DNA from: a virus
Length of the DNA stretch: 64,000 nucleotides
Direction: 5' to 3' (one strand)
Virus record (IMG/VR): IMGVR_UViG_3300025018_000006
Span: 16,515-80,514 of that record
A model generated the notes under the pieces. The model saw nothing but the letters and a program-made list of their open reading frames with translations. It was not told where the DNA came from and ran no database searches. Position 1 is the first letter of the stretch. Each line of letters begins with the position of its first letter. Positions 27,287 to 30,033 of this stretch are shown piece after piece. The translations under genes were made by a program, and so were the position numbers.

Positions 27287-27916
27287 TTAAAGTTTCAAAT
27301 CATCTGCAGTAGGCTCTATCTTATCCTCTGTTTCCGGTACCTTACTTGATGGATATGGATTAGGAGTATTAAGTCTCTTTAAATCCATTCCAAGCCACAT
27401 AATCCCTTCCTGCAATTTGGTAACCGATAAAGATTTTTCACGAGAAGGAAATCTGTCTGCACATTTCTTAACTTCTTGAAGCATATTATCAATTCCTTTT
27501 CTTAATCCTTTTATCTGAACAATCTCAGATGGTTCGGTAATTTTCTTTTCGGGAGTAAACACATCTACAATGGCTTTGAAAAGAGCATCTTTCTTTCTTT
27601 GAAATTCCGGTAAGTCATCATAAGGAACAAGGCATGGATGAGTCTTTACTTCAGGATCTTTTTCCTCACCAAGAATCCAACCGTCTTCAATTTTTTCAAT
27701 CATCCAATTATCATGCATCTTCTTATCTGTAACAAACGGATTATTCAAACGAAAAGCAACTCCATTATATGCAGATTGCTGCTGCCATTTTGGTGCATTA
27801 TCCCAATCAAACTGTGAAAAATCTCCATTGTTTTCACAATATGCTTTATTTGCCTGATGACAAATTTTAGCTATTTCCAATATAGGCTCAGGACTAAATA
27901 CCTCTCTTTTTTCCAT
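27287..27916 (-). CDS. RyR-domain protein fused to an Acb2/Tad1-like helical hairpin
   Basis: HDNWM..KIEDGW...KTHPCLVPYDDLPEFQRKKD (RyR); SREKSLSVTKLQEGIMWL. Confidence 0.7.
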   Translation of the reverse strand: MEKREVFSPEPILEIAKICHQANKAYCENNGDFSQFDWDNAPKWQQQSAYNGVAFRLNNPFVTDKKMHDNWMIEKIEDGWILGEEKDPEVKTHPCLVPYDDLPEFQRKKDALFKAIVDVFTPEKKITEPSEIVQIKGLRKGIDNMLQEVKKCADRFPSREKSLSVTKLQEGIMWLGMDLKRLNTPNPYPSSKVPETEDKIEPTADDLKL

Positions 27917-28881: not shown

Positions 28882-29280
28882 TTAATTCAATAAATGTTCT
28901 AATCCCTGATAACCACCCATGTGCTTTTTCTGCACATAAGTATCCTGATTCTTCATGGCAAACATATTCCAACTCCATATATCTTCAAAGACAATTACAC
29001 TAACTATCTTTAATGGATTGTTTTTACCACCTGAAAAAGTCCTGATAGACGTTTCAATAACAGTTATCTCACCAAACTCAGGCTTGAATACACTATTGGC
29101 AAAACCCCTAATGTAATCATCTCCCATATTCTCAATCTCACCAACTGCATTGAATATACCCTTTATCCTAAAAGAACGCATCTGTTCTTTAGTAAATTCT
29201 ACATCACGAGCCTTTATAGTCCGTAACTCCCTATCAAAATCTTCTTTACCGTAAGTCATACTTTCTTTGTATTTTTCCAT
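28882..29280 (-). CDS. Hypothetical protein
   Basis: 132-aa ORF in operon orientation. Confidence 0.55.
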   Translation of the reverse strand: MEKYKESMTYGKEDFDRELRTIKARDVEFTKEQMRSFRIKGIFNAVGEIENMGDDYIRGFANSVFKPEFGEITVIETSIRTFSGGKNNPLKIVSVIVFEDIWSWNMFAMKNQDTYVQKKHMGGYQGLEHLLN

Positions 29281-29338
29281 TTATAAATTGATTTAAAAGT
29301 TCGAAAAAGTGAATAACTTCGTTAGTAACAATCACCTT

Positions 29339-29563
29339 TTAATCAACCTCCAAATCATCAAAGTCATCATCATTCCACTTATTAACATCATTCAATCCCT
29401 TCAGTAATATCATCCTCTCATAAGCATGATCAGCTAACACATTCCTTATAAATACAGAAAACGGCCTCCTCTTACCTTCCTCATTTACCGGACCCTCCTT
29501 CTTATGTAAGTAACGAAGCTTGTCCAATAACTCCTGGTCAAAATTAATTAACAGTTTCTTCAT
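29339..29563 (-). CDS. Ribbon-helix-helix regulator
   Basis: KKLLINFDQELLDKL...FSVFIRNVL: strand-helix-helix pattern. Confidence 0.65.
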   Translation of the reverse strand: MKKLLINFDQELLDKLRYLHKKEGPVNEEGKRRPFSVFIRNVLADHAYERMILLKGLNDVNKWNDDDFDDLEVD

Positions 29564-29567
29564 TAAG

Positions 29568-29667
29568 CAAATATAAACCTCTTTTTACTACAAAACAAAT
29601 ATTTTAACCTAAAAGTATATACTTTTACCCCCTTTTCAAATAAGGGCAATTGTATATACTTTTGCCC
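29568..29667 (-). promoter_or_regulatory. Bacteroidota-type promoter with two palindromic operators
   Basis: Minus-strand TATATTTG (-7 element TAnnTTTG) with TTTG upstream; AAAAGTATATACTTTT at 29611-29626; GGGCAATTGTATATACTTTTGCCC at 29644-29667. Confidence 0.6.
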
Positions 29668-29787
29668 AGAGAGTAAATACAAGTGCGCGGGGTAATATTG
29701 CTAAATCTCAGCTATTTTGTTCTAAAGATGGGTAGGGGGGGCTTTGTATATATAGAGATGGGGCCCCAAATGAAAAAGAAGAAAAAT

Positions 29788-29940
29788 GCTCATTCGTTCG
29801 ATCTAAAAGGTTTTTTTCGCATTTACTCGCTTCGTTTAGTTTAATCAACGAGCTAGTGATGCCATGTTACGTTCTTAACCAACATGATTAAACTAAACTC
29901 GCTCGTAAATCGCTTGACCTTTTATCTCTCACTCATTCGC
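29788..29940 (-). other. Long bottom-strand hairpin with tandem G.A pairs
   Basis: Watson-Crick stems of 14, 6 and 8 bp, separated and extended by GA/GA appositions. Confidence 0.8.
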
Positions 29941-29967
29941 TATGGCTGTGCCAGCCATTAGTATAAT

Positions 29968-29987
29968 GGTGTGCTTCGCACGTATAT
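29968..29987 (+). repeat. 20-bp direct repeat copy 1 (GTGC-GAA-GCAC hairpin on bottom strand)
   Basis: GGTGTGCTTCGCACGTATAT, identical at 31140-31159. Confidence 0.9.
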
Positions 29988-30033
29988 AATTAAGTTATTT
30001 ATTTCTTTGATTATTCATTTAAACTATATCGTT

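Follow-up and report, generated by a model that had tools for sequence, protein, structure and literature searches.

The subject of this analysis is a 153-base imperfect inverted repeat at positions 29788-29940 of a 64,000-nucleotide (nt) stretch of viral DNA (the window), which comprises bases 16515-80514 of the 80,514-bp virus record IMGVR_UViG_3300025018_000006. On the bottom strand the repeat folds as a single long hairpin whose pairing design is clearly strand-specific and non-random, as is supported by the fold itself, by scans for tandem mismatches, by shuffled controls and by energy evaluation. The interpretation favoured here, tentatively and with rather less than even confidence, is that the hairpin is a strand-asymmetric single-stranded DNA (ssDNA) signal on the template strand, which may aid transcription or priming.

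Walking through the bottom-strand fold identifies 40 Watson-Crick pairs; these are G-C or A-T throughout, without a single G-T. From its base upward the stem has four steps, each of 2 bp followed by a GA/GA tandem, then 8 bp and an internal loop (CAAG/AAAAAA); above this come 2 bp, a bulged G, 6 bp, a GA/GA tandem, 2 bp and GA/GAA, before an uninterrupted 14 bp at the apex and the terminal loop. Its parts are as follows.

29788-29940, bottom strand: the long hairpin, 40 Watson-Crick pairs and six G.A tandems, with a 37-nt loop at 29848-29884.
29917-29940, bottom strand: 5' arm of the basal module, four repeats of 2 bp plus GA, then 8 bp.
29788-29811, bottom strand: 3' arm of the basal module, partner of 29917-29940.
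29899-29910, bottom strand: 5' arm of the inner module (6 bp, GA, GC, GA), which holds CGAGCGAG, i.e. two CGAG repeats.
29821-29833, bottom strand: 3' arm of the inner module, which pairs with 29899-29910 and includes CGAAGCGAG.
29834-29898, bottom strand: perfect 14-bp apical stem, 29834-29847 with 29885-29898, around the 37-nt loop.

The symmetric mismatches of the hairpin are solely 5'-GA/5'-GA tandems, five in number; the sixth tandem, GA/GAA, carries an extra A. In all six, 5'-GA lies opposite 5'-GA in antiparallel orientation between Watson-Crick pairs, as in the tandem G.A motif of DNA, and, as read from the sequence, five of them have a pyrimidine-GA-purine context on both arms, the exception being A-GA-T. 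At the G.A positions the top strand has TC/TC. The original prediction, made from the letters of the DNA, had described a hairpin that folds on one strand through six G.A tandems, of which one has a bulged A, the same positions being C/T mismatches on the top strand; it is confirmed, and every detail of the description that was checked proved accurate. At the base of the hairpin both arms, the 5' one with its first 10 bases, also match d(GCGAATGAGC), a decamer known here from the title of its report alone, at 9 of 10 positions each, and an 8-nt direct repeat, CTCATTCG, is present at both ends of the hairpin.

The array of G.A tandems is exceptional for this genome. An ungapped scan of both strands of all 80,514 bp for stems with at least two G.A tandems returned only this hairpin, with four tandems in one run. 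When 12 types of tandem mismatch were scanned, G.A alone exceeded two tandems, the matches for AA (6), TT (8), CT (1) and TG (1) each having two. Twelve dinucleotide shuffles of the genome, again on both strands, produced 11 two-tandem matches and none with at least three. Among 171 other viral loci (1.59 Mb), at least three tandems were found in just two: L157, the array of which is a tetranucleotide-like microsatellite, and L140, which is considered below. The hairpin is not an artefact of a single-sample assembly, because two contigs from different public runs (X10 record 3 and X13 record 4) cross it with zero differences; the comparison covered contigs from four runs, among which there were no variants. 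None of the 24 runs listed for the sequence was an RNA data set.

Other measures were less useful. A gapped, G.A-tolerant aligner also placed the hairpin top, at 76, but purine-rich coding strands reached 50-68, and the ungapped test was used instead. A scan for CGAATGAG...CGAATGAG returned 118 loci that have two tandems by construction, and is uninformative, while RNALfold windows were too broad to help with the hairpin. Enrichment of CGAATGA was not found (7 observed, 6.4 expected).

The asymmetry between the strands is marked when RNA parameters are used. Minimum free energies (MFEs) of -45.0 kcal/mol (z -5.5) for the bottom strand and -33.6 (z -4.2) for the top strand are obtained with them; with the identical full structure imposed on both, the values are -40.4 and -26.0, a gap of 14.4 kcal/mol. 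In this parameter set the G.A loops cost 0.0, +0.3 or -0.7 each, and the TC loops +1.4 to +2.4. The MFEs obtained with DNA parameters are near-equal (-19.6 bottom, -18.2 top) in a set that has no G.A term; because G.A loops receive a generic penalty of +1.3 to +1.9, the DNA set is uninformative on strand asymmetry and is no measure of it in DNA. In the stem base, the complementarity of four isolated dinucleotide steps is sensible solely if the doublets between them pair, which G.A doublets do and pyrimidine doublets do not; to judge from this layout, the bottom strand is the strand under selection. The lack of G-T wobble in the 40 pairs is more what would be expected of DNA, or of a young element, than of an old RNA.

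The same energies bear on the alternative that the original prediction itself had raised, namely a leftward structured RNA. It is taken here as a small or antisense RNA copied in the leftward direction with the sequence of the bottom strand, stabilised by G.A pairs and perhaps ended by a U-rich run. In its favour, the bottom-strand RNA has the lower folding energy and z score of the two, and the U-rich sequence ATTTTTCTTCTTTTTC does follow the hairpin on the bottom strand; there is also a host-type leftward promoter in the region, at 31339. Bacteroidota promoters have a TAnnTTTG-type consensus, and a search with this consensus found no such promoter in the interval 29941-31339 of the bottom strand, which leaves a leftward RNA that starts at a host-type promoter and crosses the hairpin without support. 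Nor was a sigma-70-like site found on the bottom strand inside the hairpin or just to its right; within 29788-29940, neither -35/-10 or sigma-70-like sites nor TAnnTTTG were found on either strand. The U-rich run complements an A-rich leader that is present also in relatives without the hairpin, and a stem base made of 2-bp steps, which the run follows, is weak for a terminator; no intrinsic terminator was found in 29300-30300. There is, further, no G-U among the 40 stem pairs, and a search of the whole window against Rfam was negative at gathering thresholds, with only chance-level matches (E 0.69 or more) in 29560-30040. A leftward RNA is, overall, unlikely.

L140, an unrelated viral contig, provides an independent example of the design. 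Positions 470-615 of L140 form three hairpins, two of which consist of 2-bp steps alternating with G.A tandems; as with the hairpin studied here, they fold far better on one strand (-70.8, z -6.3, for the G.A strand versus -50.7, z -2.1, for the opposite strand) and lie in an early-type non-coding region of a phage. They come just after a near-consensus TTGACA-17-TATACT promoter and are on the sense strand of the downstream open reading frames (ORFs), which suggests that the design can act as RNA, and in L140 it plausibly works as a leader RNA. This is a point in favour of the leftward RNA, and one of those that weigh against an ssDNA signal. The orientation differs, however: in L140 the G.A strand is sense, whereas in the crAss-like phage studied here it is antisense to the adjoining genes.

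The genome belongs to the Crassvirales. The 1,291-aa protein encoded at 1067-4942 matches the crAss muzzle family (crAss_MUZ, E 1e-98), and the terminase, portal and head proteins match crAss-type PHROGs. The hairpin is placed in a 470-nt divergent gap between a leftward structural module and a rightward module, and its G.A strand is the template strand for the rightward genes. The original prediction had put it at the start of the early region; the hairpin is indeed at the head of the rightward module, which can be called early by analogy with the replicative genes of the crAss-like phage phi14:2. The features that flank it are as follows.

29575-29610, bottom strand: strong host-type promoter (TTTG ... 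TATATTTG) of the leftward operon, abutting the first ORF of that operon.
29731-29766, top strand: two-block motif GGTAGGGGGG-N17-ATGGGGCCC, present once in the window.
30034-31070, top strand: first rightward operon, with ORFs of 62, 59 and 191 aa.
31079-31112, top strand: strong intrinsic terminator, a GC-rich stem then T10 (read from the sequence), which ends the first operon.

The leftward promoter sits to the left of the hairpin, which is thus outside the leader of the leftward operon.

The first operon beyond the hairpin cluster encodes an SSB-type (single-strand-binding) protein. The 191-aa product of 30495-31070, the gene for which starts 555 nt downstream of the hairpin, has 74 homologues (46-74% identity) and no Pfam family. 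Its predicted structure has a mean predicted local distance difference test score (pLDDT) of 91.4, and the closest solved fold is PrgE of the conjugative plasmid pCF10 (Foldseek E 2e-4; Z 11.5 and 11.1, with the next entry at 6.4). After PrgE, the further structural matches are other single-strand-binding oligonucleotide/oligosaccharide-binding (OB) folds, and it is on PrgE and these that the assignment is based. Further to the right are a weak RepL-like gene, which is below Pfam's cut-off, and a RadC gene.

Close to the hairpin, and again beyond the terminator of the first operon, there are smaller elements on the bottom strand.

29942-29958, bottom strand: 7-bp hairpin with a GCA loop.
29965-29987, bottom strand: copy 1 of a 23-nt repeat, with the mini-hairpin GTGC-GAA-GCAC (exact GCGAAGC).
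31137-31159, bottom strand: copy 2 of the 23-nt repeat, 22/23 identical, downstream of the rightward terminator.
31163-31184, bottom strand: small hairpin CAAAC-GA-GC-GGCA-GC-GA-GTTTG, with one G.A tandem.

The last of these adjoins copy 2 and uses the C-GA-GC / GC-GA-G steps found in the long hairpin. The mini-hairpin of copy 1 (29971-29981; 4 bp with a GAA loop) is of a size that fits the small hairpins of N4 type.

The preference for an ssDNA signal over RNA comes from the lack of a bottom-strand promoter and of wobble pairs, from the existence of DNA motifs with the same pairing, and from the precedents of phage N4 and the crAss polymerase. In vitro, the virion polymerase of phi14:2 transcribes ssDNA or denatured DNA, and duplex DNA barely (10.1101/2020.03.07.982082). 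The account of early transcription in the same source gives no shared upstream motif for the early transcripts of phi14:2, and places the replicative genes in the early class (10.1101/2020.03.07.982082).

The proposed sequence of events involves folding of the bottom strand as DNA, extrusion, an SSB and a reading enzyme. The AT-rich junction would be underwound or unwound, either by supercoiling after entry or by a fork coming from the non-coding and RepL-like region on the right, and the inverted repeat would then open. The bottom strand would be locked as the long hairpin, every mismatch being a sheared G.A tandem, while the top strand, with its C.T/T.C doublets, would fail to pair over the basal 24 positions and stay single-stranded, available to SSB, possibly the PrgE-like protein of the operon. 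In this way the DNA next to the 23-nt GCGAAGC repeat and to two small hairpins of the template strand would be kept open, and this 23-nt element would be the likelier start signal, whether for rightward transcription by an ssDNA-preferring virion RNA polymerase or for priming. A more specific form of this proposal, which must be considered quite improbable as it stands, is that the hairpin acts as an opening device for the virion RNA polymerase of crAss type. It would be a template-strand hairpin, extruded by supercoiling and resistant to SSB, that holds the junction single-stranded and lets a polymerase dependent on single-stranded templates start at the mini-hairpin element.

Comparison with relatives was made for 24 terminase-relative loci (63-78% identity) and for 15 loci with the two-block motif, which reduce to 8 distinct loci plus L177, a GC-rich chance match. 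The OB-fold homologues P0002-P0016 (63-74% identity) indicate that there are closer relatives as well. The terminase relatives share just 29652-29777 of the intergenic region. Within this segment the motif GGTAGGGGGG-N17-ATGGGGCCC has a fixed 17-nt spacing with a variable spacer, and occurs ahead of the first rightward ORF in L172, L173, L178-L182 and L184; its form suggests a promoter or recognition site of bipartite type. The window, L173, L178 and L179 each have a different insert at one and the same junction. The inserts of L173, L178 and L179, when folded on both strands, showed no clear strand preference. The long hairpin and the two small hairpins (approximately 29788-29992) are thus a lineage-specific insert at a variable hotspot, because neither the relatives with the motif nor phi14:2 have a G.A array beyond chance.

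Some observations on these relatives can be recorded alongside. L173 and L181 have in common an element, GAAACCAGGTAGCCTAAT...TGCATTGGTCTGG, at the end of the leader or of the first operon, possibly a conserved signal or small RNA. Inspected by eye, the L179 insert seems to carry on its opposite strand a small ORF of hydrophobic character and then a hairpin, and is a candidate for a moron-like cassette. Palindromes of the form AAAAGT-N-ACTTTT occur in the window at 29611-29626 and 29650-29663, 37 nt apart, and are likewise placed in L172, L173 and L178; their centres vary between phages, as expected of operator sites for a phage-specific regulator. The RyR-domain neighbour (27287-27916) was tried as a probe for synteny and dropped, since none of the 28 loci that share the domain has a syntenic junction. 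The word AAGTTATTT, considered as a recurrent promoter-like word, has one occurrence in the window and was also dropped.

The position of the two-block motif could point instead to a 5' leader RNA of the rightward operon, with the top strand as sense and the pyrimidine doublets as deliberate internal loops, for example to evade double-strand RNases or to bind a protein. The motif lies just upstream of the hairpin and directly before ORF1 in relatives, and is promoter-like; an imperfect host-type -7 element is present on the top strand at 29657; the top-strand RNA still folds, with the energy and z score given above; and other phages have different inserts at the equivalent position of the leader. 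In phi14:2, long intergenic regions correspond to abundant early RNAs (10.1101/2020.03.07.982082). Against a top-strand leader, the basal dinucleotide steps need doublets that pair, each U.C costing +2.1 to +2.4, and the proposal gives no reason for six identical mismatch doublets. It would seem improbable that such a leader accounts for the hairpin.

The variability of the junction raises another explanation, that the hairpin is a functionless, lineage-specific palindromic insert, either moron-like or the remnant of a mobile element, at a recombination hotspot, and that its G.A pattern is inherited. Consistent with this proposal, the hairpin is missing in all the relatives sampled and the four inserts all differ; hotspots beside promoter-plus-stem-loop (PeSL) cassettes are known in T4-type phages (PMC2839356); and the direct repeat at the two ends could be that of a target duplication. 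The terminal repeat, however, belongs to the G.A-zippered pairing, unlike a random target duplication, and decay of a neutral palindrome would not give six identical mismatch doublets. The hairpin is, moreover, present as a single copy, with none elsewhere in the genome, and copies were found in none of the collections searched: phage records (blastn of 29000-31000), 72,556 plasmid records (blastn of 29780-29995), viral contigs (apical stem) and prokaryote genomes (a 20-mer), by exact-word or blastn searches of a kind that could miss diverged copies. A functionless insert is possible, if doubtful. Some further explanation, beyond the ssDNA signal and the three alternatives weighed here, is given a small residual probability.

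Several observations, in addition to the L140 hairpins, count against the hairpin being an ssDNA signal, the main weakness being the missing conservation. Conservation of the GA tandems in relatives was one of the points on which the original prediction had rested its own refutation, and it was not found, the hairpin being absent from all 8 distinct relatives with the two-block motif and from phi14:2, in which 100,000 of 100,418 bp were scanned and gave two minimal two-tandem matches. The 24 terminase-relative loci are likewise without it, one of them (L043) having a single chance-level two-tandem match that is non-syntenic. In L172, L180, L181, L182 and L184 the two-block motif and A-rich leader lead directly to ORF1, so that in these five relatives the first operon works without the hairpin. 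The 37-nt central spacer should impede cruciform extrusion. With DNA parameters, the fixed structure gives -15.4 versus -12.9, in a model that lacks G.A terms.

The evidence from the smaller elements is similarly unhelpful to the ssDNA signal. Copy 2 of the 23-nt repeat is without a long hairpin, and L189, an otherwise unrelated viral contig, carries the repeat element twice without a G.A hairpin, the identical 20-nt core being at 1797-1816 and again 46 nt away. A stretch of 44 nt is common to L189 and site B at 86% identity, and L189 has no similarity to the window at the protein level; that the hairpin interrupts a 44-nt unit common to L189 is at best a weak lead, coming from a low-complexity alignment. 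Genome-wide, the bottom strand has 5 distinct small G.A-tandem hairpins and the top strand 4, most of them weak and intragenic, and neither these nor the GNA triloops of the rightward module (4 versus 4) have a strand bias; enrichment of GCGNAGC was not found (7 observed, 4.7 expected). The G.A theme is local, not genome-wide. With respect to the polymerase, there is a point in favour of the signal: a giant ORF of approximately 4,633 aa (genome 1-13835, L196), which is outside the window and was read across the circular junction, has DFDGD at residue 2143 and, by Pfam, an LPD14 domain only. Against the signal, this ORF has only marginal similarity to gp66 of phi14:2 (BLASTP E 0.014), located in what 10.1101/2020.03.07.982082 terms the trigger loop.

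With respect to the wider region, the genome has a terminal direct repeat of exactly 127 bp, a length which suggests that it is an overlap left by the assembly of a circular path and not the real ends of the virion DNA. The cumulative minimum of the GC skew, at genome position 46151, is 150 nt from the hairpin; it follows the switch in gene orientation, and so identifies no origin. RNALfold gave many strong local hairpins on both strands at 30200-31600, and no tRNAs were found in the window.

On the choice of start site by crAss-like virion RNA polymerases, a literature search found no paper later than the phi14:2 study that defines their promoters. The combination of the hairpin, the repeated GCGAAGC element and an SSB-type gene is a concrete substrate for study with oligonucleotides and a recombinant polymerase. 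If the hairpin were the opening device outlined above, no promoter-proximal DNA structure would have been described before it for crAss-type polymerases, and it would be a convergent counterpart of the mechanism in N4. Even if it is an RNA or a functionless insert, it shows clearly that six identical G.A doublets in one stem have been selected, or inherited.

Amongst known systems, the promoters of N4 are an obvious comparison. In N4, the hairpins of the promoters are stable in the template strand alone, by virtue of a sheared G:A pair, SSB melting those on the other strand (PMC4496689). The hairpin studied here is similarly placed, in that it belongs to the template strand and precedes genes that are called early by analogy with phi14:2. 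By contrast, N4 hairpins are small (5-7 bp stems, 3-nt loops), repeated and conserved from -17 to +1, whereas this hairpin is a single-copy element of 153 nt, with 40 pairs and a 37-nt loop. The polymerases would also differ, that of the crAss-like phage probably being of the crAss two-barrel kind and that of N4 T7-like; no search for a T7-like polymerase was made in the present genome. The 23-nt GCGAAGC repeat is nearer to the N4 promoters than is the long hairpin, and GCGAAGC-type mini-hairpins are found at the priming sites of G4 and ssiA as well as at N4 promoters (PMC13037366). In this respect the element beside the hairpin resembles G4-type origins and ssiA (PMC13037366).

Palindromic elements of the miniature inverted-repeat transposable element (MITE) or repetitive extragenic palindromic (REP) kind occur in several copies, unlike the hairpin, which is at one place in the genome. 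The PeSL cassettes of T4-type phages are a closer parallel for its surroundings, in that a conserved G-run/C-run motif marks an insert-variable place, as the two-block motif does here (PMC2839356). That likeness concerns the flanking motif and the hotspot, not the hairpin; in the present case no sigma-70 boxes were identified and recombination is presumed.

The pairing itself has well-described counterparts in DNA. Consecutive CGAG blocks, with C:G, sheared G:A, A:G and G:C pairs, form DNA hairpins that are stable above physiological temperature, as shown by nuclear magnetic resonance (PMC10085684). With these blocks, GCGAAGC and the d(GCGAATGAGC) duplex, the phage hairpin shares the pairing chemistry and, in part, the letters. 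Work on these motifs was done in vitro, with short oligonucleotides or with a repeat from a human promoter, whereas the natural phage hairpin has six tandems over 150 nt and is known from its sequence.

With regard to layout, the leading regions of plasmids with Frpo/ssi elements offer a further parallel. The phage is double-stranded and, unlike those systems, is not known to deliver its DNA in single-stranded form; its stem is without -35/-10 or host-type boxes, and no sequence similarity was found in the 72,556 plasmid records. The arrangement of the parts is nevertheless shared, i.e. a long imperfect hairpin on the template strand ahead of an SSB-type gene (PMC11541004), which in the phage is the PrgE-like OB-fold gene at 30495-31070, downstream of the hairpin and on the same transcribed strand.

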